This document shows, in pieces, positions 12,687-55,540 of a stretch of 64,000 nucleotides of DNA. The notes beneath the pieces are model-generated. The model was not told where the DNA came from. It worked only from the letters and a program-made list of their open reading frames with translations, and made no database searches. Location: the NCBI GenBank assembly GCA_035577545.1, contig DATLVI010000009.1, forward strand, positions 3,696 through 67,695, written 5' to 3'. Source of the stretch: Verrucomicrobiia bacterium. GTDB lineage: Bacteria; Verrucomicrobiota; Verrucomicrobiia; Palsa-1439. Within the stretch, counting starts at the first letter, position 1, and each line of letters opens with the position of its first letter. Both the position numbers and the translations under genes were made by a program.

Positions 12687-15542
12687 CTACGGCACCAAGA
12701 CGCGGACGCGGTAGTATCGCGTTGCGCCGGTCGCTCCGCCCGGATCCACCATGTTGGTCAGTGTGCCAAGGCCGGTGCCGCCACTCAGGATGTTGGTCAC
12801 GTTGGCGGTTACGAAGGTATTGCTGTTGTAGTTGCCACCCGTGCCGGTGGTGAACTCCAGTACGTTCGTGCGGGAGGCGGGGCCACCCGTGTAAGTGCTG
12901 TCGCCACTCGCGCCCAGGTAATCCACGCGGATGTCTGCACCACCATTGGTCTTGGAGATGCTCGTGATGTGAACATACGCCCCGCTGCTGGTCGGATTAA
13001 ATCCTGCCAGGAACTCGTTCGTATTATTCATGCCATCACCATCCGGGTCCGCCGTGCCAAGCGCATTACCACCGCTCAGGCCATAATGCGTCGCCCACGT
13101 GGTGCTGTAGGGATCGCCGCCGCCACCGGCAGTTACGACCAGCAAGATCCGTGTAGTGGCCGGATCATTGGAAACTGTGGCGGAGAATCCGCCGGGCAAC
13201 GTGCCCACAGCCAGGGCACTCGACACCAGATTGGAGTAGGTGAACAGCGTGTAAACATTCGCGCCGAATCCGGCGCCACCGGTGACGTTGACCGTGCCGG
13301 CCAGCGTCAAACTATTGCTCACACCTACCGAGTCCTGGAGCGTGCCCAAGTGATAGTTGAGCACCGCGGAGGAACCAAACACGAGATTGTTGCTGAAGAG
13401 GACAGTACCGACGGCGGCACCGATTCCCGGAGAGAATATGCCAAGGTTGGTAACATTGCCGGCGACTGTGCCACCCCCGCGTAGGGTGGCGTTATTGGTC
13501 ACCGTCAAGCCGCCGCTATTGAAATTGTGATAGCCGGTGCCGCCCGCCGCCATTTCGTAGACTGCCCCGCTGGCCGCCGTGCCGTCACCGACTGCAAAGG
13601 TGCCGGGGATATCGGGGTGGCTATCGACGGTGGCGCCACCAGCACTCAGTACACCACCGGAGAAGGTCACCGTATTAGTCGGTCGAACGCGCATAAACCC
13701 GACGGAAAGTGCGCCGCCATTAAGCACGAGAGAATTGCTTATTGCGGCACTGTTGCCGACGTTCAGATTAGTGATGGTCACCGATGCGTTGGTGATGGTC
13801 AGCACATTGCCAAAGGTGTTACTTGCGGCGCCGATGTTGAGCGAACCGGTGTTGACGACAATGGCCGCGGCGCCCGGGCCGCCAAACTTCACCGTGTTGA
13901 ACACCGAGGTTATGTTGTTGCCGATACTGAAGGTGCCGTTGTTGTAGAGCTTGCCGCCGTCAAAGACGCCCAGGAAATTCGTGCCCCCAGTGCCCGTACC
14001 GACAATGATGTGATTGGTGTAGTTGGCCACCGAGGAGGAATTGGACCAGACCGACGAGGCGCCGATCACAATGCCCGTATTCAGCGAACTGTTTGCGCCA
14101 ATTGTGCCGTTACCCGACAGCAACACGCCGCCGTTGGTGACGATCAGGTTATTGCCACCCGTACCGCCGAGGTTGACGCCACCGACATTGTCGGAGGTAA
14201 GAGGGTTGAGGAGCGTGCCGTTGTCAACGCGCAAGATGTCCATCGAGCCAGCCACGTTGATGCTGTTGGAGTTGCCGGCAGGAACCCCGAGACTGATGCT
14301 ATTGGTTACTACCAGAGTCCCTTTGCCGTTGACGGAAATGGTTTCTATCGGTCCTTGCGGATTCAGGAAGTTACAGGACATAAATGCGTTCGTGACTATG
14401 ATGAAGTTGTCTTGATGGTTCGTGTTGACTGACGAACTTCGCACCACGACAAACGACCCGGTGCTCGTCAGACCTGTCCCGCCCATGACGAAGCCATTGT
14501 GGATGTTGCTGGAATTGTTCCCATACGCAAATGTGCCGCCGCAACTGATAAAAGCGCCATCTTGAACGGTGAAGAGGTTATTGGTGGCACCCGCGCCACC
14601 CAGACCGATCTGAACACTACCTTGCGCGATCAACTGCGAGCCGGCGCCAGTGACGACTCCGGTGTTGAAGCTGGCAGTGCCGCCGAAGAGAAAGGAGCCA
14701 GTTTCGAAAAGTTTGGCGCCGTTGGAGATGATCAATGAGCCGCCATTTCCGCTGAACTTGAGATCCCCCGCGGAGGTTATCGTTGCGCCGCTGGTCGGAC
14801 CTGAGAGAAGCATGGAATTGTTGGTAAGGCCAATGCCGTTACCGACCGTAATCGTGCCGTCGACGAAGAGTCTGCCACCATTCGTGATGATCAACCGATT
14901 CAACCCGCTGGATGAGCCGATGGTAAGGGTACTGCCGCTGCCTGTGCCGCCGTCCGTGTACACACCATTGCCGGTGATGACCAGCGTGCCGACCGAATTG
15001 CTACTTGCTCCGACGATGCCCGCGTCAGCCGCCACCGTTCCGTTGGTGACAACGAGTGTACCAGTACAGAATAAACCGGGAACGTTCGTCACAGAATCCC
15101 CGATACGAAGTTGGCCGGTGACAGCCGTCACGCCGGCAACGGCGAGCGTCCCGCCCGTTATAAAAACTGTTGATATAGAATCTGCGACGCCCACACGGAA
15201 GGTATTTGTGACGCGATACGTCAATCCGTTGGGATTGATCGTAACCACGCCGGTGTGGTTGGAGATGACAGTGCTCAGGAGGTTGGGTGTGTTGGCGCCG
15301 AGACTTACCGTGATGCTCGTCTCGTTTGTGAAAAAAGTTACGTCGCCGTCCACCGGTGCCAAACCCGTATCCCAGTTCGCCGCAGTGCCAAAAGTCCCAC
15401 TGTTCACGATCCAGGTTTCGTTCGTCGCCCGTGCCGTGTTGCTACCCAATGCCAAGCCCAGTGCCAAAAGCAACGCTCCGCCCAGAAGATTTTTGGTAAG
15501 TTTCCGAAAAGTGTGCCCGACCCCTGATAGCTGATTCATCAT
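12687..15542 (-). CDS. Large secreted beta-helical / PATR (autotransporter-associated beta-strand repeat) protein of 951 aa with the conserved RYYRVR-type C-terminal domain. No catalytic domain recognised.
   Basis: Signal peptide MMNQLSGVGHTFRKLTKNLLGGALLLALGLALGSNTARA. The rest is an extremely Gly/Thr/Asn/Ser-rich repeat body. The C-terminus reads ...DPDGDGMNNTNEFLAGFNPTSSG...ATRYYRVRVLVP. Confidence 0.8.
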   Translation of the reverse strand: MMNQLSGVGHTFRKLTKNLLGGALLLALGLALGSNTARATNETWIVNSGTFGTAANWDTGLAPVDGDVTFFTNETSITVSLGANTPNLLSTVISNHTGVVTINPNGLTYRVTNTFRVGVADSISTVFITGGTLAVAGVTAVTGQLRIGDSVTNVPGLFCTGTLVVTNGTVAADAGIVGASSNSVGTLVITGNGVYTDGGTGSGSTLTIGSSSGLNRLIITNGGRLFVDGTITVGNGIGLTNNSMLLSGPTSGATITSAGDLKFSGNGGSLIISNGAKLFETGSFLFGGTASFNTGVVTGAGSQLIAQGSVQIGLGGAGATNNLFTVQDGAFISCGGTFAYGNNSSNIHNGFVMGGTGLTSTGSFVVVRSSSVNTNHQDNFIIVTNAFMSCNFLNPQGPIETISVNGKGTLVVTNSISLGVPAGNSNSINVAGSMDILRVDNGTLLNPLTSDNVGGVNLGGTGGNNLIVTNGGVLLSGNGTIGANSSLNTGIVIGASSVWSNSSSVANYTNHIIVGTGTGGTNFLGVFDGGKLYNNGTFSIGNNITSVFNTVKFGGPGAAAIVVNTGSLNIGAASNTFGNVLTITNASVTITNLNVGNSAAISNSLVLNGGALSVGFMRVRPTNTVTFSGGVLSAGGATVDSHPDIPGTFAVGDGTAASGAVYEMAAGGTGYHNFNSGGLTVTNNATLRGGGTVAGNVTNLGIFSPGIGAAVGTVLFSNNLVFGSSAVLNYHLGTLQDSVGVSNSLTLAGTVNVTGGAGFGANVYTLFTYSNLVSSALAVGTLPGGFSATVSNDPATTRILLVVTAGGGGDPYSTTWATHYGLSGGNALGTADPDGDGMNNTNEFLAGFNPTSSGAYVHITSISKTNGGADIRVDYLGASGDSTYTGGPASRTNVLEFTTGTGGNYNSNTFVTANVTNILSGGTGLGTLTNMVDPGGATGATRYYRVRVLVP

Positions 15543-20400: not shown

Positions 20401-21886
20401 TATGACGCCCAAGGGCGGGTCACAGGCCGAGGCAATCATGGTCAATACGGCGGCCAGGCGGTTCATTCTCAACTACGCGGAAGTGGACAGCTTCCAGGAC
20501 ACGATCCTCATCAACGACTTCAGCTCGCAGGCATACTTCTACAAGAGCTTGATCGTGGGTGATACGGACTTCATCTGGGGTGTTGGGAATCTTTTCGCTA
20601 CAAACTGTGAAATCCGCTCGGTGACTGGCGGCGCTTCGATTACCCAACCGCGAACTCCCGCCGGCAGCAACGGCTTGGACTTCGTGGACTGCCAGATTAC
20701 AAGAGGCGGCACGAATGTCACTAATACCACGTTCGGGCGCGCGCTCGGGTTCTGCGATGGCAATGCCGCCTTTATCAATTGCCAAATCGACAGCAATGTC
20801 GTGGGCTGGACAGCGGCGGATCTTACGGGGTGTCCGAATCTGCGGTGGTGGACCTACAACGACACCGACCTGCTCACGGGCAGCCCGCTGTCGTTTAACG
20901 GCGTCACCCTGACTAATGGCGATCCGAATCTGGCGTGTGCCTTAAGTCCGACCTGCTGGCTCAGCGGCTGGGTGCCGCAACTCGCCCCGAACATCTTGAC
21001 GAACCCGGTCAGCGTGACGGTCACAGCGGGCGTCAACGCGACATTCACCGTGGCTGCCACCGGTATTCCCGATCCGAACTATCAGTGGCTCAAGAATGGT
21101 GCGACCATCACCGGTGCGACGGGCCCCACGTTTGTCATCCCGAGCGCGCTGGCAGGCGACGCGGGAGGGTATTCCGTGATCGTTTCGAATATCGCGGGTT
21201 CAATCACCAGCGGCAGCGCGACGTTGACGGTCGTGGGCACGGGTCCATCGGCCAGCTTTACGGCGGCACCGACCAGTGGTACGGAACCGTTGGCTGTGAC
21301 CTTTACGGATACATCGAGCGGATCGCCGAACATCACCCTGTTCTGGGATCTTGGTGACAGCACCACAACGAATCTGGCGGGTGGGACTACCCTGGTGCAT
21401 TCGTATGCGGCAGGTACCTACACCGTAACCTTGACCGCGAGCAACGCCTTCGGCGCCAACAGCACGATTGTCTCGAACAACCTGATTACCGTGGTCACAG
21501 CATTCCAAGCGTGGCAATTGTCGCACTTCGGTTGCACCAACTGCCCACAGGCGGCCGCGAGTGCGGATCCCGATGGCGATGGCCAGAACAACCTCGCTGA
21601 ATTCCTGGCGGGGACTGACCCGAACAATAGCGCGTCGGGGTTACACATCAGCTCCGTGGCGCGATCCGGCAGTGACGTGGTCATCACATGGGCCACGGCC
21701 GGTGGGGCCACCAATGTTGTGCAGGCGACCGCAGGCGATGGGAACGGCGGGTACACCACCAACTTCAGCGATTTGAGTGGGCCCATCGTCATCACTGGCA
21801 GTGGTGATGCGAGCACGAACTATACGGATGTGGGCGGCGGAACGAACGTCCCGTCTCGCTACTATCGTGTGCGGTTGGCGCCATAG
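17453..21886 (+). CDS. Giant secreted modular pectin methylesterase of 1477 aa (signal peptide, beta-helix/PATR region, Ig-like domains, CE8 pectinesterase, Ig-like, PKD, conserved C-terminal domain).
   Basis: CE8 motifs: GSQAEAIMV, FQDTILIN and GDTDFIWG. The Ig-like units have a YQW[FY]xN motif. PKD domain: SASFTAAPTSGTEPLAVTFTDTSSG...WDLGDSTTT. The C-terminus ...AFQAWQLSHFGCTNCPQAAASADPDGDGQNNLAEFLAGTDPN...SRYYRVRLAP. Confidence 0.85.
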   Translation: MTMPHPLRVTTHNFRKSLKSLAAGAMAVGLALFIGVGDTQAQVTYNFTNTAATAFLSDPNAWSPVGGPGTNLDTFTILQAATKTLRLTNNFLNNGSFQIGASGGGQTLNLTLDFGTNTFVGLNGNTTSGSDFVFGQQGTTIVYIACGSMYNTNAGAPTGNARMTVGRNSGAATSIFFTNGTFVGGITVIANNAGATPSQLVVSGSGSSWSNANGMSIGNVALANNCSLAISNSASMTVMSTFQLGFQAPSSFNSVIVDSSGQLFTRNQTATIGAGSGSSNNTVTVQGGGIWDNGGRIIQVGNTTGVGSNNSLVVGNNGVVSNVTVVTIAAGDSLKMAGGLLRASVGVTNNAGAITGFGTIAANTAYTAGTSALSLGSGSSVGTLTFTNNLSLVSGTTTRIKLDSSQSGSNDFLNVLGTLANAGTITIVTNGTAPLSAGDVYTIFAAGALSGGFTSSNLPALDPSLRYDLTQFPQGILKIVPQEVVPGLTGPTNQVILVGSNAIISATVTGVPTPGVYWQYNGNNITDGATGNGSTIAGSQTLTLTLSNGQTNDSGSYCIIATNSQGSATNCMGLTVSNGNVPPSISGMSDQTVIQGNNGTFNASVAGSPSPGVKWQVNGIDIPGATGIPLILTNVQFSQDGFLYTLIATNSSGSATNSQTLHVIVAPIIATQPQSLVVTQTQSATFCVVSTNGVPTPTYQWFFGNSSILNATSTCYTITSATPANAGTYRVRITNTAGTIDSTNVTLTVNSTMAAVLTPANGAPSVCYDTPLFMAFDRLPVLNGAGKVSIYNVTNPASAVDTIDTSLGVLQSRTIGGETFSTFPVIITGTTVAIYPHLGVLGTNQTYFVTVDAGIFTDTNGALYAGIVSTNGWVFTTKPAGPANPLNVIVSTNESDDFATVQGAVDSVPANNTTPTLINIRNGTYTEIVDTRLKNNITFRGQDRTKTRVGYPNNNNINGSTANRMAFKINANDNAIENMTVTNMTPKGGSQAEAIMVNTAARRFILNYAEVDSFQDTILINDFSSQAYFYKSLIVGDTDFIWGVGNLFATNCEIRSVTGGASITQPRTPAGSNGLDFVDCQITRGGTNVTNTTFGRALGFCDGNAAFINCQIDSNVVGWTAADLTGCPNLRWWTYNDTDLLTGSPLSFNGVTLTNGDPNLACALSPTCWLSGWVPQLAPNILTNPVSVTVTAGVNATFTVAATGIPDPNYQWLKNGATITGATGPTFVIPSALAGDAGGYSVIVSNIAGSITSGSATLTVVGTGPSASFTAAPTSGTEPLAVTFTDTSSGSPNITLFWDLGDSTTTNLAGGTTLVHSYAAGTYTVTLTASNAFGANSTIVSNNLITVVTAFQAWQLSHFGCTNCPQAAASADPDGDGQNNLAEFLAGTDPNNSASGLHISSVARSGSDVVITWATAGGATNVVQATAGDGNGGYTTNFSDLSGPIVITGSGDASTNYTDVGGGTNVPSRYYRVRLAP

Positions 21887-22071: not shown

Positions 22072-25000
22072 ATGCCCGGGTTGCACCACGTTTTTGCCGC
22101 ATTCCTGCTGTTTGTGTCCGCTGGATTGGCACGCGCCGGCACCCCTCCGCTCCCGACTTTCAACAGCAACCTCGTCTTCGACGTGACCAACACAGTGTTT
22201 GCCGGTGGTGCGCTGGGCGACGGCGTTTCCAACAACGCCGCGGCAATTCAAGCGGCCATCAACATGATCTCGACGAATATCGTCGCAGGCGCCACGGGTG
22301 GCACCGTTCGCGTGCGGGCCGTTGGGACGTTTACCAACTATTTGTCCGGACCAATTGCGCTCAAGAGCCACGTCAATCTCTTGATCGACACCAACACGAC
22401 GTTGACGATGCTCTCCATGGCCAATTGGCCGAGCACGATTACCTTCTTGAGCGGGGGCACGATTACTGATAGCGCGATCAGCGGCGCGGGGACGATCGAT
22501 GGCCATGCCTCATTTATCTCCGGCACCACGACGAATTGGTGGGGCACTTCGGGCGGCAATAATGCGGTTGCCAACCGCCCAAACATGATCGAGTACGACG
22601 GCAGTAAACGGGTGCTGATTCAGGGCGTGACGCTCCAGAACCCGCCCACCTTTCATATCATGGTGCATAACAACAACAACGGTCTGACGATCCAGAATAT
22701 CAAGATCGCCACCGCGAGCGGCTCGCAGAACACGGACGGCATCGATCTGGCCTCCACGAATGTGTTGATCCAGGGGTGTTCCATCAGCGACGGGGATGAC
22801 AATATCCAGATTGGTAGCAGTTCGGCGTTGGCGTCGGACATCACGATTACCAACTGCCTCTTCGGTAGTGGTCATGGCCTGTCGATTGGCAGTCCCACGC
22901 AAGCCGGGGTAAACAATCTTATCGTAAGCAACTGTACCTGGAATGGCTGCGAGTATGGCATACATATGAAGACCGACCGCGACATCGGCGGCTCGATTCA
23001 TGACCTGAAGTATCTCGACCTTGTCATGAGCAATGTGAATTTCTTCGTCGCGATCTACCCCTACTATCATCAAATTGGCTCGCCTTCGAGTAGCATTAAC
23101 GTCAGTCCTTTCATGGCGGCCACGGACACGGTCCACACCGTTACCGGTACGACCCCGATTTTCAAGAACATCACCATCAGCAACGTGACGGTGACTTCGA
23201 TCGGCGCAAATATCGCGGGAATCATTTGGGGATTACCGGAATCGCTCGTGTCCAACGTTAACATCTCGAAAGTCAGTATCGCCACGCATAACAAAACGCT
23301 TTGTATTTATAACAGCAAGGCCGTTCAAATCACTGACTCCACCCTGACCCTGCCCACCACCAGCACCAACACGTTGACGCTCTACAATGCTCAGGTCACC
23401 GTTACCAATAGCACCCTCAATGCGAATCCGGTGACAATGACCGGATTGGCCTACAATGGCACGAATACGCTGGTCTTCGGGACCAATACGCTCGCGTTCT
23501 TCAACGGCAACGCGAGTGTCGTCACCACCAACCTACTCGCCATCGGTTCCACCACACTGTCGGGCAGTACGCTGACCTTCAGTCAGAGTTCCATTACGTA
23601 TTCCAACCCACTGAATGTTCTTGCAGCCAGCACTTTCGTGGTCAGCGCCGGTACCAACATATTTAGCGGCGTACTGACTGGTCCCGGACCGTTGACGCTC
23701 AGTTTCGTTACACCGTCGTTCAGCATGTTATCGGTGCGGGGTAACTGGTCGGGCTTTAGCGGGACGGTTTCCAACGCCAACGGCGGCATTCTCCGCTTTG
23801 ATCAGGGAACGAATGCCTGGGGCGATGGCAATGCCGTGTTCGCAAACGGCCTTTCGGGAATCCTGAACAACCACGCGACAAATAGCATCATGATTTCACT
23901 GGGCGCTCTCTCGGGTGGGACGTCGTCGACCCTGGCCGGCAGCGACCAGACCGGGCCGGGGATCGACACCTATGCCATTGGCGGCCTCAACTCGAACACG
24001 ACATTTGATGGCACGATCACCGATGGGACAAGTCTCAGCACACCCCACACCGTCGCCCTGACGAAGGCTGGGAGTGGTAGCTTCACGATTTCTGGTGCCA
24101 ATACCTACTCCGGCGGCACGATGGTGAGCAACGGGACTCTGCTGGTGAACAACACCACCGGCAGTGGGACCGGCGCGGGTGCGGTCACCGTCGTCAGCGC
24201 CGGGACCTTGGGCGGTGGCGGTATCATCGGTGGATCGCTGACCGTGAGCGGTACACTGGCACCGGGGAATAGTCCCGGCACACTGACGATCAGCAACGAT
24301 GTGGTAGTCAATGGCGGCGCGGTCTTGCGATACGAGCTGGGCACGAATAGCGACCTGACGGTGGTGAGTGGAAACCTGACCTTGGGCGGTACGATCAATG
24401 TAATCGACGCTGGCGGGTTCACCAATACCGCGTACACACTGTTCACCTACGGCGGCGCGCTGACGTACAACGGCGTCACGATCGGCACCACGCCGAACAC
24501 CAACTTCACGTATGTGATTAACACCAATACCGCTGGTCTTGTGAAATTGGATGTTTCCGGTTCTGCAGCATCTCCGACAGCCAGTTTCACAGCCATTCCG
24601 ACCTCGGGCGTTGCGCCATTGGGAGTTACCTTCACGGATACTTCAACGGGATCGATCACTAATCTGTTCTGGGACTTTGGCGACAGCAGTACAACCAACA
24701 CGGCGGCAGCCGCTAACTTCGTGCACACGTACGGGGCTGTTGGCACGTACTCGGTGACGCTGGTTGCGAGCGGCCCGGGTGGCGATGGCACCAACTTTCA
24801 GTTGAATCTGGTCACGGTTCTCGATCCGTTCGTGGCATGGCAACTGCAATATTTTGGCTGCACCAACTGCGCACAGGCGGCGGGGGACGCCGATCCGTTG
24901 GGCAAAGGTATGAGCAACACAAATCAGTTTCTCGCGGGCCTCAACCCGACCAACGCGGCTTCGGCGCTACGGATCATCTCCGCCATGCGGCAAGGCAGCG

Positions 25001-25212
25001 ACGTCGTGATCACATGGACGACAGCGGGCGGCCACACCAACGCCGTACAGGCCACTAGCGGTGATGGGAATGGCGGTTATGCCACCAACTTTACGGACAT
25101 CAGTGGTCCGGTCATTATTACGGGCAGCGGGGATGCAACAACCAATTACCTGGATACTGGCGGCGTGACGAATGGCCTGTCGCGGTATTATCGAGTCCGG
25201 CTGGTGCCATAG
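22072..25212 (+). CDS. Giant secreted modular GH28 polygalacturonase (N-terminal GH28, PATR repeats, PKD, conserved C-terminal domain).
   Basis: Start at MPGLHHVFAAFLLFVSAGLARA (signal peptide); alternative ATGs are at 22039 and 22003. GH28 motifs: QNTDGIDL, GDDNIQIGS, GHGLSIGS and IHMK. PATR-like repeat ...LTKAGSGSFTISGANTYSGGTMVSNGTLLVNN. The C-terminus ...FVAWQLQYFGCTNC...DPLGKGMSNTNQFLAGLNPTN...SRYYRVRLVP. Confidence 0.85.
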   Translation: MPGLHHVFAAFLLFVSAGLARAGTPPLPTFNSNLVFDVTNTVFAGGALGDGVSNNAAAIQAAINMISTNIVAGATGGTVRVRAVGTFTNYLSGPIALKSHVNLLIDTNTTLTMLSMANWPSTITFLSGGTITDSAISGAGTIDGHASFISGTTTNWWGTSGGNNAVANRPNMIEYDGSKRVLIQGVTLQNPPTFHIMVHNNNNGLTIQNIKIATASGSQNTDGIDLASTNVLIQGCSISDGDDNIQIGSSSALASDITITNCLFGSGHGLSIGSPTQAGVNNLIVSNCTWNGCEYGIHMKTDRDIGGSIHDLKYLDLVMSNVNFFVAIYPYYHQIGSPSSSINVSPFMAATDTVHTVTGTTPIFKNITISNVTVTSIGANIAGIIWGLPESLVSNVNISKVSIATHNKTLCIYNSKAVQITDSTLTLPTTSTNTLTLYNAQVTVTNSTLNANPVTMTGLAYNGTNTLVFGTNTLAFFNGNASVVTTNLLAIGSTTLSGSTLTFSQSSITYSNPLNVLAASTFVVSAGTNIFSGVLTGPGPLTLSFVTPSFSMLSVRGNWSGFSGTVSNANGGILRFDQGTNAWGDGNAVFANGLSGILNNHATNSIMISLGALSGGTSSTLAGSDQTGPGIDTYAIGGLNSNTTFDGTITDGTSLSTPHTVALTKAGSGSFTISGANTYSGGTMVSNGTLLVNNTTGSGTGAGAVTVVSAGTLGGGGIIGGSLTVSGTLAPGNSPGTLTISNDVVVNGGAVLRYELGTNSDLTVVSGNLTLGGTINVIDAGGFTNTAYTLFTYGGALTYNGVTIGTTPNTNFTYVINTNTAGLVKLDVSGSAASPTASFTAIPTSGVAPLGVTFTDTSTGSITNLFWDFGDSSTTNTAAAANFVHTYGAVGTYSVTLVASGPGGDGTNFQLNLVTVLDPFVAWQLQYFGCTNCAQAAGDADPLGKGMSNTNQFLAGLNPTNAASALRIISAMRQGSDVVITWTTAGGHTNAVQATSGDGNGGYATNFTDISGPVIITGSGDATTNYLDTGGVTNGLSRYYRVRLVP

Positions 25213-28200: not shown

Positions 28201-28904
28201 AGACAAACTGGCTGGTGACGTCCTATGCGCCGACGGCGCCGGTCATTGTCGCGGGCCCTCAGAACCAGAGTGTTTCCCAGAATACCACCATCAGCTTCAC
28301 GGTTGTGGCCGGGGGCAGCGCGCCATTGAGCTATCAGTGGTATTTCAATACCAACAGTCCGATTGCCGGTGCCACCAATTTCCTATTTACGCTCGCGAAT
28401 ATCCAGGCGACCAACGCCGGGATCTATTCGGCCATCGTCAGTAATAGTGTTGGCTCGACCAATAGTGCCGGTGCCACGCTTACGGTAAATGTGCCAACGA
28501 ATACGGATCCCTTTGCGGCGTGGCAGAACCAGTATTTCACACCGGACGAACTGGCCAACCCATCCTTCAGCGGGCCGGACGCTGATCCGCTGGGCAAGGG
28601 AATGAGCAACACCAACCAATTCCTTGCCGGTCTCAATCCGACCAATCCGGCGTCGGCGCTGCGGATCATCTCCGCAGTGAAGCAGGATAGTGATGTTTCG
28701 ATCTCATGGACAACGGCGGGCGCCCACACCAATGCTGTTCAGGCGACCGGCGGTGACGGGAGTGGCGGTTACTCAACCAACTTTACTGATATCAGCGGAC
28801 CAATCATCATCACGGGTAGTGGGGACGCAACCACCAATTACGCGGATAGTGGCGGTGCGACCAACAACCCAGCACGTTACTACCGCGTCCGGTTGGTGCC
28901 CTGA
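25251..28904 (+). CDS. Giant secreted modular PL1 pectate lyase (shared N-terminal module, 3 Ig-like domains, PL1 catalytic domain, Ig-like, conserved C-terminal domain).
   Basis: ATG at 25251 gives MQRIYRIILMLVVLLGLTASNFA; the track start is a GTG at 25245. PL1 motifs: WIDHCTF, DGIVDIK, ...HHEWFINPWDRLPRLRGGNVHDYNIY. The C-terminus ...FAAWQNQYF...DPLGKGMSNTNQFLAGLNPTN...ARYYRVRLVP. Confidence 0.85.
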   Translation: MQRIYRIILMLVVLLGLTASNFATVYLDDFWSDGLRTTQNLPTESAWFASSSGSLAATPGSMNLSMGSSAILVLTYYTTNSTSPVQLGVGDALTATFNLTFSGLAASNTSQGFRIGLFDFADSTLSPKRVTADGFSSSSQGAGVQGYALLQNMSPQFNNSTPMDIRKRTTLTDNSLLGTSSDYTSLGTGPGNVTAFPGFSNGTNYILQITLQRTATNTMAITASWLNTANGATLITSETDTGATNFNFDGIGLRPLTAASTATTITFQEAKVEFIPANTPATVTSDPQDQAVFVGQNASFGVLASGSPPLSYQWYYNGITLLTNATSATLTLTNCQISDSGQYSVIVSNTSGVDTSGVANLSVTIPTAPSIGTQPQGGTVLPGSSFSFNVVAGGSQPLTYQWFLNNTTTITGGNDSTLTLTNIQPGQAGNYSVLVSNLAGTATSSNAVLIVNTNPVAPVFISQPSSQIALAGTIVNFTAAAAGTAPITYQWSKNNVAIAGATATTFSITNVQTTDDGNYSVTASNNVGGTTSGTAQLTVTPPVPVPLSAYNLVGFGQGTTGGGVLADTDPNYAKVFTAIDLANALISKTVRVIEIMNDLNLGYNEIPAAAKATSEPFRADSTPLLHPVLLTTGVSLIDIQKKNGLTIFSANGSTIRHAHLNIKAGSNIIVRNLKFDQLWEWDEATKGNYDKNNWDFMTIGDSGSITGLWIDHCTFTKAYDGIVDIKNGSAGITISWCKYTGDDGATNNNSWVWQQINALESNKASYVMYNTLRTAGFSSTDIVTVIQGHDKTHLIGANDMDPNNALHTVTLHHEWFINPWDRLPRLRGGNVHDYNIYVDDTAGIAAKHLRDSHPFSSSYSFNPFLNGSISTENGATLVEKSVYIDCITPLRNNQTDPSNPAYTGKILALDTIYVNPADGSVTRGNSTDPGSQLGPFQAPIIPFSWNLAGNQLPYTYFPDDPSQLQGIVTSPTAGAGAGVLTWAKTNWLVTSYAPTAPVIVAGPQNQSVSQNTTISFTVVAGGSAPLSYQWYFNTNSPIAGATNFLFTLANIQATNAGIYSAIVSNSVGSTNSAGATLTVNVPTNTDPFAAWQNQYFTPDELANPSFSGPDADPLGKGMSNTNQFLAGLNPTNPASALRIISAVKQDSDVSISWTTAGAHTNAVQATGGDGSGGYSTNFTDISGPIIITGSGDATTNYADSGGATNNPARYYRVRLVP

Positions 28905-39800: not shown

Positions 39801-40653
39801 CCTGATCACCAACTCGGCACCGGGGATCAATGTCGTGACGTTGGGCGGCCTGGCAAAGGGAGGGACCAACAACAACCTGAGCTTCTTCAACACGCAGGCC
39901 ACGATCACTGATACCAACATGCTCGGCACCAATCCATTGCTTACATTGGGCAGCAGCACGTTCACGGTGAGTAACAGTCTGAATCTGGGTGGCACATCGA
40001 CGCTAAACTTCGGGTTGGGTACGAACGCGACTGAAATTGTTGTTATCGGCAATCTCTCGGTGAGCGGCACACTCAACATCACCGATGCCGGTGGTTTCAC
40101 CAACAACACGTACACGCTCTTCACCTACGGCGGGACGCTGACCTACAATGGCATCACCATGGGCACGACGCCGAACGCGAATTTCACATATACCGTTTCC
40201 ACCAACACGATCGGACAGGTGAACCTGGTTGTTGGCAGCAACATGCCGCCATCGGATCCGTTCACCGCGTGGGAAAACCAGTATTTCACGTTGGCTGAAC
40301 TCGGTACCTCGTCGTTTAGCGGGCCAGGCGCTGATCCACTGGGCAAGGGGATGAGCAACACCAACCAGTTTTTGGCGGGCTTGAATCCGACCAACAGCGC
40401 GTCGGCGTTGCGGATTACCGCAGTGACGCCCGAAGGTCACAATGTCACCATCACTTGGACGACTGCCGGTGTGAGAACCAACGCTGTGCAAGCAAGCACC
40501 GGCGACGGCAACGGTGGCTATGGCACGAACTTTAGCGACATCAGCCCTCCGATCATCATCACCGTCGGCGGAGATGCGACCACCAACTACGTGGACAGCG
40601 GCGGGGCGACCAACAGTCCGGCACGTTACTACCGTATCCGGCTCGTGCCGTAG
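36895..40653 (+). CDS. Giant secreted modular GH28 polygalacturonase (shared N-terminal module, 4 Ig-like domains, GH28, PATR-like, conserved C-terminal domain).
   Basis: ATG at 36895 gives MRTESRRKVVPILAALFGLVLPVRA (signal peptide). GH28 motifs: PNTDGMDV, GDDNIQMGS, GHGVSIGS and IRLKSDRDIGG. The C-terminus ...FTAWENQYF...DPLGKGMSNTNQFLAGLNPTN...ARYYRIRLVP. Confidence 0.85.
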   Translation: MRTESRRKVVPILAALFGLVLPVRATVLLDQTSWTTTTRRTQSLPTRSAWFASSTGSLSVSGGALRMVVGTSSGAGISYFTANSNTPPVQLNVGDTLAATFRFTFNGVPPLGSSSQGFKIGLFDSADGSNVPKRVTADGSPFSSGGQGTFVEGYALFQKMYVVFADNQPIDIRKRTAIGDASLLGASADYTSLAKGGLTNTFAGFSNLTQYTFQILLQRTNLSSMAIAMTWSNLANAATLSLSTADNTATNFNFDTIEFRPANNTQAPATNLFQEVKVEVSSAPVAPAILADPQDQALSSGQTATFSAVVNGTLPLSYQWYFNDTNTPIGAASSVNFPPAHTPVANPSLTLTNVQLTDVGDYFVVVTNSSGSVTSAVANLTVTEAAPTITTQPQDLTVIPTQPTAFSVVAVGSEPLSYQWYYNTNSLLTNATSSTLTISNVQPSDAGIYSVIVSNPIGTAVSSNAVLTVNTNPVTPIFILQPVGFTARVGDNASFSASTIGAQPISYQWKANGTPIVGATSTTINLPGIQLTDAGTYTLVASNAIGSTSSLNATLTVLPRTPPLPVIPTNTFNILDFGGLGNGVSNNAAAIQSAINTAAGAGGGTVIVPSGGTLSTYLSGPIILSSSINLEVDSGATLKMLPRFATATVTNWPSPSLPPFISASGLNDIEISGSGTIDGNAGFGSTNWWQSPTLDESLRPHMIDFSGCTRVLIQGVTLQNPPVFHMLLKGNNVSVTVQNITENTPGNSPNTDGMDVGSTNVLVQNCSISVGDDNIQMGSSAAPVADMTVSNCTFGTGHGVSIGSPTQRGVHDLLVSNCTFNGTDNGIRLKSDRDIGGLVENLRYIDITMTNVDYPIIVYSFYDSIGTPNNIMPSNAAANAAQPIVDNTPIWRNILFSNLTVTATTGNNIAGILWGRQEMVVSNVTLYNVNFAAPTKTFDIYNARGIRIINSNLTAPSSTNTLTLYNAEVLITNSAPGINVVTLGGLAKGGTNNNLSFFNTQATITDTNMLGTNPLLTLGSSTFTVSNSLNLGGTSTLNFGLGTNATEIVVIGNLSVSGTLNITDAGGFTNNTYTLFTYGGTLTYNGITMGTTPNANFTYTVSTNTIGQVNLVVGSNMPPSDPFTAWENQYFTLAELGTSSFSGPGADPLGKGMSNTNQFLAGLNPTNSASALRITAVTPEGHNVTITWTTAGVRTNAVQASTGDGNGGYGTNFSDISPPIIITVGGDATTNYVDSGGATNSPARYYRIRLVP

Positions 40654-40665: not shown

Positions 40666-43600
40666 ATGCGAAACAAATATCTCATAGCTGGAACGGCTGC
40701 ACTGGCGTGTTTTGGTGCGAATCTGTCGCAGGCCCAATTATTGAAGGTTGATATCAATAACACGTCCCGCGGGGATAATACCGCGCCGGGTTATCAGGCA
40801 TGGAATCTCGCCACAGACCTGGGCTCCAATAGTAATCGTGCTACACGCGTATTCACCAACGCCGCCAATAGCCCGATCTCCTGTACGGTTTCCCAAACGA
40901 CTCCCGTAATTGGGACTGCGAATATCGGCTTGAAAGCGGATTGGGGAAACAAGGACGGCAACAACACCAGCACCGATCCGAACGCGGGTTATCGACTGTC
41001 CGCCGATGGCGTGTTTGCGTTCAATTTTTCCGCCGGGATCCCCGCCACCAATGGCGGGGCCTTCTGTCTGATCGTCTCCAACCTCTCTGCGGGCGCGCAC
41101 ACGATCACGACCTATCACAATGACGAGTGGGGCAACCACGTTAACACCACCTGGCATGGCAGCAATAATTTCATGAGTAGTTGCGTGGTGAGCGTGGGCG
41201 GTGCTCCGGTGTTCACCAATACGCCGTCCTATTACGCTACCAACGACTTCAAATGCGGGTTCGCCTACTTCACGGTAAACGCCATCGACGGCCAGCCGCT
41301 GATAATCAATTTTGATCCCGCTCACAACAGCACCAGCAATCTGGATTTTGTCATTCTCAACGGCTTTGCGATTGATGGTCCGTTCCCCGGGACCACGGCG
41401 ACCGGGGCAATTCCGGGCGACGGCAACGAGCACGTCTTCGCCAATAACGACAGCCCCACTCCCGGTTCCGCAGGCACCGGCTTCACGACGCTCAGTTGGA
41501 CGCCTTCGGAGTTTGCGGTTTCGCATGATGTGTACTTTGGAACCGTCAGCAATGCGGTAAACATTGCCACCCACGCTTCGCCTGAATTCAAGGGCAACTT
41601 TACGACCAACATCTGGAACACCGCCACCAACCTGGATAGCGCCCTGACCTACTACTGGCGTATTGATGAGATTGATTCCACGAACGGTGTTTCCAGGGGC
41701 GCGGTTTGGCGTTTCCGGACACGTCACATCGCGTTCCCAACGGCGGAAGGGTATGGTCGCTTTGCCCGCGGCGGTCGCGGTGGCGTAGTCATCGAGGTGA
41801 CGAATACGAACGATTATGATACGACGATCGGTGAGCCCGTGATTCCCGGCAGTTATCGAGCGGCGATTGAAGCCAGTGGGCCACGCACGGTCGTCTTTCG
41901 TATCTCCGGGTTGATCCGACTCAAACGTCCCTGCACGATTAACAACACCAACGGCTATCTCACGGTCGCTGGGCAGACCGCGCCCGGTGATGGCATCTGC
42001 CTGAGCGGTTGGCGGGCGGGGATCAGCAGTTGCAGTGACGTGATCATGCGTTTTATCCGCCTCCGACTGGGAGAAGCCAGCAAGCAGTCCATGGACGGAA
42101 TTGGCCTGGGTAATTCCAGCGATTCCGTCATCGATCACTGCACAATCAGTTGGACCATCGACGAGTCCACCAGCTCCCGCCAGAGCGGCGCGGTGGGCAG
42201 CGGTTCGGCTAACATCACGTTCCAGCACAATATCATTTCGGAGGCGTTGGACCATTCCTATCACTACGACGATGCCCAGCGGGCGACCAATGGCTGCACT
42301 CAGTGCTATCAGCCGCATTCGTTTGCCGGTTCGATCAGTGGCGAGATCGCCAGCTATCACCACAACCTCTTGGCCCACTGCACGGGACGAAATTGGAGCA
42401 TGGCCGGCGGGTTGGATCAAAGCTCGCATTACGCGGGGTCGCTCGATATCCGCAACAATGTCGTTTACAACTGGACCTCCCGCACGACCGACGGCGGTGT
42501 GCAGCGCGGGAACTACGTGAACAATTACTACAAACCCTATACCAACGCCTCGTACTGCGTGAAATGGCTGTTCCGGCTCGACGCGATCAACCCGGTCTGG
42601 GGCACAGAAAGTTATTTCTTCGACGGCAATGTCATGGAAGGGCAGAATTACGATTCGAACAACTGGCAATTCGGTACGGCTGTGTTTGTTGGGGACGGCA
42701 GTACGTATGCGACTTCCAACCAATTGGCCGGCGTGCGGACCAATGCGGAAGTTTTCCCATCCTACGTTACGACGCAAACCGCTCGCGACGCGTTCAAGGT
42801 CGTGTTGTCAGATGTCGGCTGCAACCTCCCGGCGGCAGACGTGATCGATCAACGCGTCATCGGCGAGACACTTACCAAAACGGTCCATTACGAGGGGACC
42901 AATGGTCCAACGTATACCATCGACGGCGTGCCGCAACCCAGCCAAGCCAGTCCCAACCGGCCTGGCATCATCGACGCGACGACCGACGTCCACGACGTGC
43001 CCACGAACGCGCCTAATTATCCGTGGCCAACATACAACACCTACAACGTCGATGTGGATTCCGATCACGATGGGCTGCCGGATTGGTGGGAAATTCTCCA
43101 CGGGACCAATCCCAATTCGTCGCCGGGCGATTTCTCCGACAGCAACGCCGATCCGGACGGCGATGGCTACTCGAACCTTGAGGATTACCTGAACTGGCTC
43201 GCCGCGCCACACGCGACTTGTGCGCAGGATTCATCGGTCAATCTGGATCTAAGCCAATTCACCGCTGGCTTCACCAATGTCCCCGTTTACACTGTGTTCA
43301 GTCCAACGCTCGGAACGGTTGCTATCCTCGGAGACGGCAAGACAGCGCAGTTTACTCCAACACCGGGCACCAACGGATTGGCTGGCTTTTCTTTCTCCGT
43401 CACCGACGCCGTGGGCAGCACCTTGACGAATTCTATCGGCATCCACGTAACGCCGACGGTTGCGCCGCCGCTGACAGCGTTCCAGCAATGGCAAATGCAA
43501 TACTTCAATTCGACAAATAGCGCCGACGCGGACGCCAATGCCGATCCCGACGGGGACGGCCAGAATAATATGGCGGAATTTCTCTCAGGTACGATCCCGA

Positions 43601-43863
43601 CCAATGCGATCTCGGCATTCCGAATCATTTCGGCGGTACGCCAAAGCAACGATGTGGTCGTGACGTGGACAACGGCTGGCGGATTCACGAACGCCGTGCA
43701 GACGGTGCCGGGAGACGTGAACGGCAGTTACACGACGAATTTCACGGACCTGAGCGGGCCGCTCATCATCTCTGGGAGTGGGGATGTGACAACCAATTAT
43801 GTGGACGGCGGCGCGGCAACGAATGTTCCATCTCGCTACTATCGGATCCGTCTTGTGCCCTAG
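40666..43863 (+). CDS. Large secreted modular PL1-like pectate/pectin lyase of 1065 aa (N-terminal unknown module, Fn3-like, right-handed beta-helix lyase domain, TSP3-like Ca-binding repeats, conserved C-terminal domain).
   Basis: Strong Shine-Dalgarno GGGAGGGAGG upstream. Signal peptide MRNKYLIAGTAALACFGANLSQA. Lyase hallmarks: FPTAEGYGRFARGGRGGVVIEVTNTNDYD..., RFIRLRLG, DGIGLGNSSDSVIDHCTISW and ITFQHNIISE. Internal DSDHDGLPDWWE...DPDGDGYSNLEDYLNWL. The C-terminus ...AFQQWQMQYF...DPDGDGQNNMAEFLSGTIPTN...SRYYRIRLVP. Confidence 0.8.
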   Translation: MRNKYLIAGTAALACFGANLSQAQLLKVDINNTSRGDNTAPGYQAWNLATDLGSNSNRATRVFTNAANSPISCTVSQTTPVIGTANIGLKADWGNKDGNNTSTDPNAGYRLSADGVFAFNFSAGIPATNGGAFCLIVSNLSAGAHTITTYHNDEWGNHVNTTWHGSNNFMSSCVVSVGGAPVFTNTPSYYATNDFKCGFAYFTVNAIDGQPLIINFDPAHNSTSNLDFVILNGFAIDGPFPGTTATGAIPGDGNEHVFANNDSPTPGSAGTGFTTLSWTPSEFAVSHDVYFGTVSNAVNIATHASPEFKGNFTTNIWNTATNLDSALTYYWRIDEIDSTNGVSRGAVWRFRTRHIAFPTAEGYGRFARGGRGGVVIEVTNTNDYDTTIGEPVIPGSYRAAIEASGPRTVVFRISGLIRLKRPCTINNTNGYLTVAGQTAPGDGICLSGWRAGISSCSDVIMRFIRLRLGEASKQSMDGIGLGNSSDSVIDHCTISWTIDESTSSRQSGAVGSGSANITFQHNIISEALDHSYHYDDAQRATNGCTQCYQPHSFAGSISGEIASYHHNLLAHCTGRNWSMAGGLDQSSHYAGSLDIRNNVVYNWTSRTTDGGVQRGNYVNNYYKPYTNASYCVKWLFRLDAINPVWGTESYFFDGNVMEGQNYDSNNWQFGTAVFVGDGSTYATSNQLAGVRTNAEVFPSYVTTQTARDAFKVVLSDVGCNLPAADVIDQRVIGETLTKTVHYEGTNGPTYTIDGVPQPSQASPNRPGIIDATTDVHDVPTNAPNYPWPTYNTYNVDVDSDHDGLPDWWEILHGTNPNSSPGDFSDSNADPDGDGYSNLEDYLNWLAAPHATCAQDSSVNLDLSQFTAGFTNVPVYTVFSPTLGTVAILGDGKTAQFTPTPGTNGLAGFSFSVTDAVGSTLTNSIGIHVTPTVAPPLTAFQQWQMQYFNSTNSADADANADPDGDGQNNMAEFLSGTIPTNAISAFRIISAVRQSNDVVVTWTTAGGFTNAVQTVPGDVNGSYTTNFTDLSGPLIISGSGDVTTNYVDGGAATNVPSRYYRIRLVP

Positions 43864-50992: not shown

Positions 50993-51030
50993 CCCCTCGA
51001 CGTCGATATCCCTGATAATCGAATGACTTC

Positions 51031-52675: not shown

Positions 52676-55540
52676 ATGAGAAGCGTTGTAGCACATTCGT
52701 TTTCCTGGTGTCGATTCATCAAGATGTTTCGACTCGCAGCGGGAATTGTCGCCCTGACGGCTCCGCTGCGGGAGCTGCCCGCCCAATCTTTCATTCAACA
52801 ACCCCAGGGCGGCACACGGTATCCGGGGGACGGCTTTCTTCTTTCGTGTGTTGTTGCGGGGGATCCACCACTGACCTACCAGTGGTTTCAAGATGGCAAT
52901 CTTCTTGCGGGCGCAACCAATAGTCAGCTGTTCCTCACCGATCTGGCACTGACTGCCGCCGGCAATTATACTGTGATCGCCAGCAATGGATCGGGCAGTA
53001 GCACGAGTGCCCCAGCTGCGCTGGTAATCCTTTCCGACACCACCATCACGAGTACGATCCAGGACGTACGGCATGTCGTGATTTTCATGCAGGAGAATCG
53101 CTCGTTTGACCACTACTTCGGCACGCTTAAGGGCGTGTGCGGGTTCAGCGACCGTAATGCCTTGCAATTAACGAATGGGAATACGGTGTTTTTCCAGCCG
53201 CAAGGTTCCAGCTATGTCTTGCCATTTCATTACACACCACAATGCCTGGACGATGTCGAGCACGACTGGGGCGCCGGGCATGAAGTATGGAATTCCGGTC
53301 ATTGGGACCGCTGGCAAATCAACGGCCCAAGCGCCATGACGTATTTCACACGTGATGACTTGCCCTACTACTACAGCCTGGCGGAAGCCTATACTCTCTG
53401 TGACGCTTACCATTGCTCGGTAATGGGGCCAACGTTTCCCAATCGCCTGTACTTGATGACCGGCATGATGGATCCCAACGGCACCGGCGGTGGACCGCGA
53501 TTGGATAATAGTCTCCCACCATTCGGTTTCACTTGGACAACCTATCCCGAACGGCTCCAGGCAGCAGGGGTTAGTTGGAAAGTCTACCAGCAGTTCAGCG
53601 ATTTCTTCCCGCTCAACGCCCTCGATTGGTTCGCCCAGTACCGTTTTGCTCTGCCGGGAAATCCTCTCCACGACAAGGGCGTCGCCTTGGTAAACAACCT
53701 CGTCTCGGCGTTCCAAGCGGATGTCGCCAATGATACACTGCCACGCGTCTCTTGGATCATCCCGCCCTGGTCCTTATCGGAGCATCCACCTTACTCCCCT
53801 GCCAACGGCGAGCGGTTGACGAAACAACTCCTCGATGCGCTTGCCTCAAACCCAACGGTGTATAACTCGACAGTCTTTATCCTTACTTATGACGAGGCGG
53901 GTGGCTTTTTCGACCATGACCCGTCGCCAGTGCCACCTCCAGGAACGCCCGACGAATTCATCATTGGCGAGCCAATCGGTCTCGGGGTACGCGTGCCCAC
54001 AATTTTGGTATCGCCTTGGACGCGTGGCGGCTATCGCTGCTCGCAGGTGTTTGACCATTCATCGGTCATTCGCTTTCTTGAGACTTGGACGGGTGTGCAA
54101 GAGCCGAACATCAGCGCCTGGCGTCGGCAGGTCTGCGGGGATTTGACATCCGCTTTCAACTTCACATCCCCCAACGCTGATTATCCGTATCTGTCGACTG
54201 TCCCAGCGATTAATTGCTCTGATGGCAATTCGCCTTCCGCGCCCGCACAGCAAACCGTCCCTACGCAGGAGTCCGGTGCGCGGCCCGACCGCCCGCTGCC
54301 GTATCAACCGAACGCCGTCTCCCTTATCGATTGCGGCGCGGGTCAATTCGGGATCACCATGACAAACGCTGGGGCCGCGTCCATCCATCTCGCGATCTAC
54401 CCCAATGCATACCGGACCGATGGCCCGTGGCAGTACGATGTCGACGCCAACAATTCCGTGAGTGATGGCTTTGATATCATTAGTTTTGGTGGCGGCCTGT
54501 ACGACCTCACGTGCTACGGGCCGAATGGCTTCCAGCGGCGATTCGCCGGCAACGTGAATGCAAACTGCAACCAGGTCGAGTTGACTTCCGCCATCGACCC
54601 AGTTGCCGGCACCATTGCCCTTTTCATGCAGAACCTAACGACATCGACAGTCGTTTTCACAGTTACCAACGACTATCCAACCGGCGGCCCATGGACTTAC
54701 AACGTTCCAGCGGGAAGCACGGTCACCGACACATTTCCCGCAGTCGCGAATAACAACGGCTTGTACGATCTGACCGCGACGGCTGACAGCGATGCGCTCT
54801 TCGTTCGCCGACTTGCCGGCCATATCGAAGCCGTCGACTTCTCTTTCGTGGTTACTCCCAATACCCAGTCCGTAACCGTTGGCAGCAATGCGACGTACGC
54901 GATAACAGTGGGGGCGATCACCGGATTTGGTGGGGGCGTGGTTCTTTCTCTGGGTAACCTGCCCACAGGTGTCAACGCAGTTTTTGATCCACCGTCGGTC
55001 GCCGGGTCGGGGACTTCGACTTTATGCCTATCGGTTTCCGGCGACGCTATGCTGGGCAGCTACCCACTGACCATCACGGCTACCAGTAGTAATATCACGC
55101 ACACCGCCAACATTATGTTGACGATCGTTCCTCTCGATACAGATGGCGATGGAGTTCCAGATTCGTGGACGCAGCAGTACTTCGGGAGTTCAACCGGTCT
55201 GGTGTCCAACCTTTCCATGGCTTATCAGGATGCTGATGGCACCGGTCAGAACAATCTGTTCAAGTACGCTGCCGGCCTTGATCCGACCAATCCAGCCTCC
55301 GTGTTTATGCTGCAGATCCAGAATGTGCCCGGCCAGCCCAACCAGAAAACGCTCATCTTCGGCCCCCGCGCCAACGGTCGCACGTACATCGTTGAATCGA
55401 ACACTGACGCGGCCAAGGGCAGTTACTTGGCGCTCGGCAGTTTCGGTGGACCGCAGACCAACGGCAATCAAGTGACTGTCACCGATCTGAATGCCGTCGG
55501 GACACAAATATTCTACCGTGTCCATATCACGTATCCCTGA
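52676..55540 (+). CDS. Secreted phospholipase C / acid phosphatase family protein (PlcN-like phosphoesterase) with an N-terminal Ig-like domain, two DUF756-like domains and a divergent copy of the conserved C-terminal domain.
   Basis: AGGAG Shine-Dalgarno 10 nt upstream of the ATG at 52676. Catalytic hallmarks VVIFMQENRSFDHYFGTLKGVCGF and GVRVPTILVSPWTRGGY. Ig-like YQWFQDGNLLAGATNSQ. The C-terminus DTDGDGVPDSWTQQYFG...DADGTGQNNLFKYAAGLDPTN...QIFYRVHITYP. Confidence 0.8.
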   Translation: MRSVVAHSFSWCRFIKMFRLAAGIVALTAPLRELPAQSFIQQPQGGTRYPGDGFLLSCVVAGDPPLTYQWFQDGNLLAGATNSQLFLTDLALTAAGNYTVIASNGSGSSTSAPAALVILSDTTITSTIQDVRHVVIFMQENRSFDHYFGTLKGVCGFSDRNALQLTNGNTVFFQPQGSSYVLPFHYTPQCLDDVEHDWGAGHEVWNSGHWDRWQINGPSAMTYFTRDDLPYYYSLAEAYTLCDAYHCSVMGPTFPNRLYLMTGMMDPNGTGGGPRLDNSLPPFGFTWTTYPERLQAAGVSWKVYQQFSDFFPLNALDWFAQYRFALPGNPLHDKGVALVNNLVSAFQADVANDTLPRVSWIIPPWSLSEHPPYSPANGERLTKQLLDALASNPTVYNSTVFILTYDEAGGFFDHDPSPVPPPGTPDEFIIGEPIGLGVRVPTILVSPWTRGGYRCSQVFDHSSVIRFLETWTGVQEPNISAWRRQVCGDLTSAFNFTSPNADYPYLSTVPAINCSDGNSPSAPAQQTVPTQESGARPDRPLPYQPNAVSLIDCGAGQFGITMTNAGAASIHLAIYPNAYRTDGPWQYDVDANNSVSDGFDIISFGGGLYDLTCYGPNGFQRRFAGNVNANCNQVELTSAIDPVAGTIALFMQNLTTSTVVFTVTNDYPTGGPWTYNVPAGSTVTDTFPAVANNNGLYDLTATADSDALFVRRLAGHIEAVDFSFVVTPNTQSVTVGSNATYAITVGAITGFGGGVVLSLGNLPTGVNAVFDPPSVAGSGTSTLCLSVSGDAMLGSYPLTITATSSNITHTANIMLTIVPLDTDGDGVPDSWTQQYFGSSTGLVSNLSMAYQDADGTGQNNLFKYAAGLDPTNPASVFMLQIQNVPGQPNQKTLIFGPRANGRTYIVESNTDAAKGSYLALGSFGGPQTNGNQVTVTDLNAVGTQIFYRVHITYP

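Follow-up and report, generated by a model that had tools for sequence, protein, structure and literature searches.

The closest described counterparts of the module reported here, a C-terminal domain shared by eight secreted proteins encoded within 64,000 nucleotides of a Verrucomicrobiia genome (contig DATLVI010000009.1, positions 3,696 to 67,695; this whole stretch is referred to as the window), belong to several unrelated systems. Non-covalent surface-anchoring repeats of the SLH, LysM and CWB2 type are, like the module, terminal, present in one to three tandem copies, attached to unrelated exoproteins and conserved within a lineage, but they have no sequence or fold relation to it, and the host of the module is a diderm. 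The C-terminal domain (CTD) of the type IX secretion system (T9SS) is also a beta-sandwich of about 80 residues in which numerous unrelated exoproteins with signal peptides end, and there are tens of copies in a genome. The module differs from it in being hosted by Verrucomicrobiia, not Bacteroidota, in the existence of tandem and internal copies, and in a sequence conservation much above that of T9SS CTDs. The fibronectin type III (FN3) domains of PelI and Pel3 from Dickeya and Pectobacterium and the immunoglobulin (Ig) fold of VesB from Vibrio cholerae carry determinants for type II secretion, and targeting by the VesB Ig fold is transferable to a reporter (PMC7949064, PMC12369372). Here, too, an FN3/Ig-fold domain resides on a secreted pectinase or protease; however, these domains are protein-specific and not a module conserved throughout a family, and the Fn3 domain of PelI is N-terminal. 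Finally, the choice-of-anchor families comprise surface proteins whose members elsewhere end in LPXTG, PEP-CTERM or T9SS anchors (bioRxiv 10.1101/2023.03.06.531300).

A six-frame scan of the window with a hidden Markov model (HMM) profile built from the eight copies returned exactly eight matches, each of which ends at a stop codon (Table 1). They are the eight C-termini that had been listed in the initial annotation, with spans within a few codons of those given there, and the alignment of the copies agrees with its description of motifs and subtypes. The module is about 135 residues long and consists of a calcium-loop motif of the thrombospondin type 3 (TSP3) kind and an FN3-like domain. The window copies are characterized by the motifs W-Q-x-x-Y-F-G, ITWTTAGG, GSGDxTTNYxDxGG and RYYR[VI]R[LV]VP, by a loop of either the DPDGDG or the DPLGKG subtype and, in three of eight cases, by C-T-N-C. 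Among six of the copies, pairwise identity is 52-77%. The copy of the open reading frame (ORF) 12687-15542, which carries an insertion, is at about 40%, while the phospholipase C (PLC) copy, already set apart as divergent and ending in FYRVHITYP, is at about 30% and is a member of a separate large subfamily of the module. Sec signal peptide-like N-termini were found by inspection on all eight carriers. As had been claimed, the carriers are unrelated: there is one CE8, two GH28, one PL1 and one phosphocholine-specific PLC (TIGR03396), and three have no recognized catalytic domain. Relatives of the module were matched with E values of 1e-44 to 1e-72 against 5.8e9 proteins, which is far above chance.

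Synonymous sites are saturated in all pairs of window copies (pS 0.65-0.81), and dN/dS is about 0.1-0.2 among the six close copies. The window copies are ancient paralogues under purifying selection. It is thus selection that has kept them similar; recent duplication or gene conversion is ruled out by the saturated synonymous sites.

AlphaFold gave an unusable model from the eight sequences (pLDDT 54). When repeated for the copy of ORF 22003-25212 on an alignment of 125 sequences from two subfamilies, it resulted in a model with pLDDT 94.1 and pTM 0.83, in which the helical part and the beta-sandwich form a single unit. The modelled elements are a helix at residues 8-17 (W-x-x-x-Y-F), a loop, a second helix at residues 38-43 and six strands that reach the last residue. 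Structurally, the module is matched best by FN3 domains, among them Fn3 modules from carbohydrate-active enzymes (CAZymes) of bacteria with 31% (3mpc) and 27% (CtXyl5A) identity; Foldseek returned no match at E <= 1e-3. Pfam fn3 (PF00041) had no match on the beta part at E <= 10, and an hhalign comparison of the beta part with a small FN3 alignment was not significant. Six strands are predicted for the module as opposed to seven in an FN3 beta-sandwich, and the chain apparently ends after the strand-F equivalent. The RYYRVRLVP tail, initially described as the absolute C-terminus, aligns with the strand-F consensus of FN3 domains. According to the model, the fold class is that of an FN3-like beta-sandwich which follows an amphipathic helix and a TSP3 loop-helix. 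CAZyme Fn3 domains (3mpc from Clostridium thermocellum, CtXyl5A, Pel3/PelI) differ from the beta-sandwich of the module, which never lacks the helix-TSP3 unit in front of it and is terminal in the great majority of cases.

The loop D-P-D-G-D-G-x-N-N-x-x-E-F-L-A-G-T-D-P matches the TSP3 repeat of bacteria with scores at the Pfam cut-off or close to it, in line with its initial description as TSP3-like. In window proteins, TSP3_bac (PF18884) scores 19.7 and 24.9 bits compared to a cut-off of 25, with the latter match representing an extra internal TSP3 of ORF 40666-43863, and among 37 complete-looking representatives there is a clear match (1e-9) in two. The D-P-D-G-D-G loop is common to TSP3_bac and the module and resembles a Ca2+ loop of the EF-hand type, but the module has only one such loop, in a fixed place between the W-x-x-x-Y-F-G helix and the beta-sandwich. 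A sequence search of PDB with the module gave EF-hand loop echoes only and nothing significant. In the DPLGKGMSNTNQ subtype (D-P-L-G-K-G-M-S-N-T-N-Q), acidic positions 3, 5 and 12 are replaced and a lysine takes the place of a Ca2+ ligand. Judging from these replacements, the DPLGKG subtype may be a variant of this fold that does without Ca2+.

The initial annotation had not recognized the module as a described family, and we also found no entry in Pfam, NCBIfam, PDB or the literature that covers it. No model from Pfam (E <= 10, isolated modules) or NCBIfam (E <= 0.1, full proteins) extends over the beta tail; what is recognized in the carriers is limited to their catalytic, Ig, PKD and PATR portions, and public names of module-bearing proteins refer to other domains or read 'hypothetical'. 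Full-text literature searches retrieved nothing on the motif or on C-terminal TSP3/FN3 modules in Verrucomicrobia. The module is an uncatalogued, large, lineage-specific domain family. Its building blocks, a TSP3 loop and a sandwich of the FN3-like kind, are already known, and its position is not strictly terminal, so that it is best seen as a variation on known types and not as a new category.

Several described families were considered and rejected. Sub-threshold matches to the Amuc_1099 pilus-like family (NF042425), which had at first pointed to a secretin or pilus system, are confined to about 30 profile positions (125-154), which correspond to the TSP3 loop; full-length equivalog matches above 50 bits were not found, and higher scores stem from repeated loops. 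Sub-threshold matches to MtsD also cover the TSP3 loop only. T9SS CTDs (TIGR04183/PF18962, type B TIGR04131), which had not been expected in such a genome, gave no Pfam or NCBIfam profile match and are absent from the top structural matches; they occur as a single copy at the extreme C-terminus, while the module forms FF and FFF arrays and has internal copies. The assessment that the module is neither PEP-CTERM nor another tripartite signal holds: its RYYRVRLVP end has no hydrophobic helix, which sets it apart from PEP-CTERM/exosortase, LPXTG, GlyGly-CTERM and MYXO-CTERM signals, and NCBIfam sorting-signal models do not match the module carriers, whereas a neighbouring ORF (11271-12239) matches PEP-CTERM. 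Dockerins (PF00404) have no Pfam match on the module, which contains a single loop-helix and not a duplicated F-hand pair. No profile of a carbohydrate-binding module (CBM) covers it, and the carriers include proteases, a PLC and many unrelated GH and PL families.

Two word-indexed searches with the module profile found 677 and 240 proteins, and an exhaustive search of 1.84e9 cluster representatives found 933 at E <= 1e-30. The profile used for the cluster representatives also took in about 70 positions of the upstream flank (PKD/Ig). This inflates the numbers obtained at weak E values (36,738 and 12,319), and only the 1e-30 count is used. At least 332 module stretches were confirmed in species-representative genomes, and all results on genomic loci refer to the best 72 of these. 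The 72 loci are without exception from metagenome-assembled genomes (MAGs) of Verrucomicrobiia/Limisphaerales from peat, bog and soil, which is in accordance with the proposed origin of the window from a genome of the Planctomycetes-Verrucomicrobia-Chlamydiae (PVC) type. With at least 13 copies per MAG at maximum (a lower bound from the 72 loci, which represent 22 MAGs) and the 933 cluster representatives, the expectation of tens of copies on signal-peptide proteins was borne out. Several module subtypes coexist within one genome. One protein match is labelled Bryobacteraceae, which may be a binning artefact.

When the copies from the window and from the 72 loci are combined, a stop codon directly follows the module in 112 of 127 full-length copies and is at most four residues away in 123. 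Terminal copies end almost uniformly in [YF]-Y-R-[VI]-R-[LV]-x-P. The position is not strictly C-terminal, however, as had been supposed: internal and tandem copies exist (e.g. L035, L066 and P0001), an observation that had been specified beforehand as speaking against the claim. Among 135 top representatives, the architectures F (72 proteins), FF (31) and FFF (5) occur, and 59 of 178 full modules are internal array members, a fraction that is over-estimated because the ranking of representatives favours multi-copy proteins. The array reaches the C-terminus in 123 of the 135 proteins. Internal copies continue after FYRV with a beta-like segment and a further DGDGIPDxW element, or with a Pro-rich linker. 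As many as 13 tandem repeats of the N-half alone (W-x-x-x-Y-F-G helix, TSP3 loop and DPTN) are found in giant proteins of 1,500-4,500 aa. From this repetition and from its occurrence alone before PKD or true FN3 domains, the N-half appears to behave as an independent linker unit.

The carriers in the 37 representatives are highly diverse. PKD domains, usually directly upstream of the module, occur in 21 of them, and other carrier domains are pectate lyases, GH28, GH16, alpha-amylase, alpha-galactosidase, apiosidase-like enzymes, subtilase (S8), papain-like peptidase (C1), RCC1 propellers, LamG and malectin. NCBIfam assigns 10 of the 37 to choice-of-anchor families (GloVer in four cases, D in three, Q in one) or to T5SS/PEP-CTERM-associated repeat families (two cases). 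Whether the carrier is of the choice-of-anchor or of the PATR type, it is the anchor slot that the module occupies.

A second C-terminal module, termed CT2, became evident in the window, where it is shared by a GH28 enzyme and the GloVer choice-of-anchor protein 55883-58135; this protein and the PEP-CTERM protein had both been correctly noted as part of the same locus. CT2 has about 335 aa, is 44-48% identical between its two window copies, is unrelated to the first module and lacks a model in both Pfam and NCBIfam. The family has at least 81 proteins with varied carriers (Big_7, fn3, BACON, PKD, GloVer). In 57 of 58 complete matches CT2 lies at most three residues from the C-terminus, with ...E-P-x-P as the usual end, and among the CT2 matches it never occurs on the same protein as the first module. 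The lineage thus has no fewer than three C-terminal ends to alternate between on carriers of similar kinds.

The locus in the window serves the utilisation of pectin and galacturonate. Its genes code for UxaE, an AraC regulator, an MFS transporter, a KduD-like SDR protein, KduI and GH88; after them come those of the CE8, GH28 and PL1 enzymes with the module. These pectinases have 950-1480 aa and are encoded upstream of three smaller signal-peptide pectinases which do not carry the module (Table 1), and this suggests a surface tier of large and a periplasmic tier of small enzymes. The flanks were read on the 209-kb source contig (ENA metagenome assembly ERZ27256708, k141_981692) and code for UxaC, hexuronate metabolism, housekeeping functions and ribosomal operons; secretion genes are absent from these flanks, and no type II secretion system (T2SS) core genes were seen in the approximately 90 kb examined.

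The evidence is circumstantial, but it favours a role in localization over substrate binding or a passive spacer, because of the terminal bias, the uniform end, the unrelated carriers, the position in the anchor slot, the alternation with CT2 and PEP-CTERM, the conservation of the paralogues and the absence from the small pectinases. The initial proposal of a new sorting or anchoring signal is thus retained in part: the anchor-slot position favours localization, but a TSP3 loop with an FN3-like domain is not a new kind of signal. Our tentative proposal, with a probability of roughly 35%, is that the module is a non-covalent cell-surface retention domain. It would be a portable end-domain, present in one to three copies on Sec-exported multidomain enzymes and adhesin-like proteins of Limisphaerales-type Verrucomicrobiia, which after export and folding would bind to a common envelope component, either an outer-membrane protein or a surface glycan or lipopolysaccharide. 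Ca2+ might assist binding in the DxDGDG subtypes, tandem copies would raise avidity, and the polymer-degrading enzymes would stay on the surface beside the uptake systems. FF and FFF arrays seem to support surface retention by analogy, as they are typical of non-covalent wall- and surface-binding modules and absent from cleaved sorting signals. Old paralogues which are still 52-77% identical despite saturated synonymous sites are consistent with one shared partner, the diversity of carriers argues against substrate-specific binding, and surface retention would suit a locus that degrades polymers and has a transporter beside it. Several points weigh against this proposal. All-against-all ORF clustering revealed no conserved neighbour gene within ±6 kb in the 72 loci; nothing but antisense artefacts and further pectinases emerged. 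Bacterial enzymes often contain FN3 domains as passive spacers, and it is CAZyme Fn3 modules that come closest among the structures with sequence similarity. The N-half is found without the beta-sandwich. As far as can be judged from the loops, Ca2+-mediated binding cannot be general across the subtypes, since the acidic ligand positions are lost in one of them. Signal peptides were called only by eye or by a crude hydrophobicity rule.

Some of these points would equally fit a module without any sorting role, i.e. an ordinary TSP3 linker with an FN3-like spacer or stabilizer, or a low-specificity binder of plant or soil polymers, that has spread by domain shuffling in one lineage and is terminal mostly because it was added last. 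The FN3 domains among the best structural matches, the alignment of the signature tail with strand F, the repeatable and sometimes internal copies, the linker-like N-half in front of PKD or true FN3 domains and the lack of a linked machinery gene are all in its favour, and we give it considerable weight, though less than even odds. For a passive spacer, an extreme C-terminal position in about 90% or more of the copies and the near-invariant R-[LV]-x-P-stop are unexpected, as is the conservation of ancient paralogues while the remaining parts of the proteins are unrelated, and the module replaces known anchors on choice-of-anchor carriers. A specific CBM variant would not have such diverse carriers (proteases, PLC, many GH families). 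Alternatively, the module may be a secretion handle on folded periplasmic cargo which is read by the T2SS or another outer-membrane translocon, and would then represent a standardized, portable version of the PelI/Pel3 and VesB signals. The FN3-like fold and these precedents point in this direction, as do the occurrence on unrelated exoproteins, the absence from the small, probably periplasmic pectinases, and the strong conservation of old paralogues, which would fit a single receptor. A GspG-like pseudopilin ORF is encoded among the carriers, but it is weak evidence, because prepilin-like ORFs are generally abundant in PVC genomes. We nevertheless regard a secretion handle as rather unlikely: the T2SS signals known so far are idiosyncratic and do not form a conserved sequence module, a recognition signal would hardly be expected in tandem or internal copies, a terminal position is irrelevant for the T2SS, and its core genes were not seen in the region examined.

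A dockerin-like function, where Ca2+ loop-helix and beta-sandwich would dock enzymes on a cohesin-like scaffold to form multi-enzyme complexes at the surface, is very improbable. The D-x-D-G-D-G-x-x-N-x-x-E-F loop with its subsequent helix does resemble EF-hands and dockerins, many CAZymes from a single gene cluster bear the module at their C-terminus, and dockerins within a species also show high paralogue conservation. However, there is only one loop-helix and no Pfam match, the DPLGKG subtype has lost the acidic ligands, a candidate for a scaffold or cohesin did not turn up, and many carriers are not CAZymes. More far-reaching, and in our opinion rather unlikely, is the idea that the module and the alternating CT2 are cargo tags of an undescribed sorting or surface-attachment system of Verrucomicrobiota, a counterpart of T9SS CTDs and PEP-CTERM in which the tag is recognized in its folded, FN3-like state. 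A dedicated outer-membrane partner might then complete or read the invariant R-L-x-P-COOH end and the place of the FN3 G-strand, which is apparently missing.

PVC-group bacteria are major degraders of polysaccharides in peat, soil and water, and the module may bear on how their large exoenzymes are exported and retained. It marks hundreds to thousands of such exoproteins but is itself invisible to current annotation, so that verrucomicrobial exoproteomes would at once be better annotated with a profile for it. As a many-to-one tag, it offers a starting point in the search for a factor by which it is read. Should there be such a factor, it would point to a new system of sorting or anchoring; otherwise the module is still a useful marker of the surface-enzyme tier in verrucomicrobial polysaccharide-utilisation loci.

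Three minor observations were made in the window. A pair of neighbouring TPR-rich proteins is encoded at 7009-11172 (+) next to the PEP-CTERM protein; the second of the pair begins with a domain resembling PMT_2 glycosyltransferases. Sub-threshold similarity to the XrtA/PEP-CTERM TPR protein PrsT was seen at 7009-11172/11271-12239, and the region 7009-12239 may be a piece of a gene neighbourhood associated with an exosortase that lies within the pectin locus. The GTG start assigned mechanically to ORF 32774-36862 makes it overlap with the last part of the gene before it (32774-32849); as the public gene call has a product of 1337 aa, the real start is about 25 codons downstream. At 49541-55540 (+), an ORF resembling class I methyltransferases and a sulfatase-family membrane protein precede the module-bearing PLC, a group with no obvious tie to pectin use.

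Table 1 Features of the window and of the module family. Positions are those of the window; bits are HMM scores; residue numbers are those of the module.
Feature	Position	Strand	ORF or context	Description
Module copy	12690..13118	-	ORF 12687-15542 (951 aa); no Pfam/NCBIfam domain	140.7 bits; 'VLVP' subtype; ~10-aa insertion in beta part; end TRYYRVRVLVP-stop
Module copy	21485..21883	+	ORF 17453-21886; I-set Ig x4, CE8 pectinesterase, Ig, PKD	212.6 bits; DPDGDG loop; CTNC; end SRYYRVRLAP-stop
Module copy	24811..25209	+	ORF 22003-25212; GH28, PATR, PKD	225.6 bits; DPLGKG loop; CTNC; end SRYYRVRLVP-stop
Module copy	28497..28901	+	ORF 25245-28904; Ig x4, PL1 pectate lyase	211.0 bits; DPLGKG loop; without CTNC; end ARYYRVRLVP-stop
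Module copy	32425..32826	+	ORF 29089-32829; I-set Ig x4, catalytic domain not recognized (Pfam/NCBIfam)	214.8 bits; DPDGDG loop; CTNC; end SRYYRVRLVP-stop
Module copy	40246..40650	+	ORF 36859-40653; I-set x3, GH28	204.0 bits; DPLGKG loop; end ARYYRIRLVP-stop
Module copy	43462..43860	+	ORF 40666-43863; Big_9/cadherin-like, additional internal TSP3	210.7 bits; DPDGDG loop; end SRYYRIRLVP-stop
Module copy, divergent	55133..55537	+	ORF 52670-55540; N-terminal Ig, phosphocholine-specific PLC (TIGR03396, above cut-off)	138.7 bits; DADGTG loop; end QIFYRVHITYP-stop
Helix 1 (predicted)	24826..24855	+	ORF 22003-25212 copy	residues 8-17, PFVAWQLQYF; invariant W, near-invariant Y-F
TSP3/EF-hand-like loop and start of helix 2 (predicted)	24892..24930	+	ORF 22003-25212 copy	residues 30-42, DPLGKGMSNTNQF
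FN3-like beta-sandwich (predicted)	24964..25209	+	ORF 22003-25212 copy	residues 54-135; six predicted strands, RYYRVRLVP last
DPLGKGMSNTNQ loops	24892-24930, 28578-28616, 40327-40365 (last two approximate)	+		DPLGKG subtype
N-half alone			L007, L047, L054; representatives P0294, P0299, P0339, P0369	
CT2 module	35864-36859	+	ORF 32774-36862	end of GH28
CT2 module	57134-58132	+	ORF 55883-58135	end of GloVer choice-of-anchor protein
Small PEP-CTERM protein	11271-12239	-	among neighbours of module-bearing genes	NCBIfam match
GspG-like protein	16413-17174	+	between two module-bearing genes	prepilin-type N-terminal methylation (DUF1559-like)
Small GH28	43892-45472	+		526 aa; signal peptide; without C-terminal module
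Small CE8	45472-47733	+		753 aa; signal peptide; without C-terminal module
Small GH28	47758-49068	+		436 aa; signal peptide; without C-terminal module

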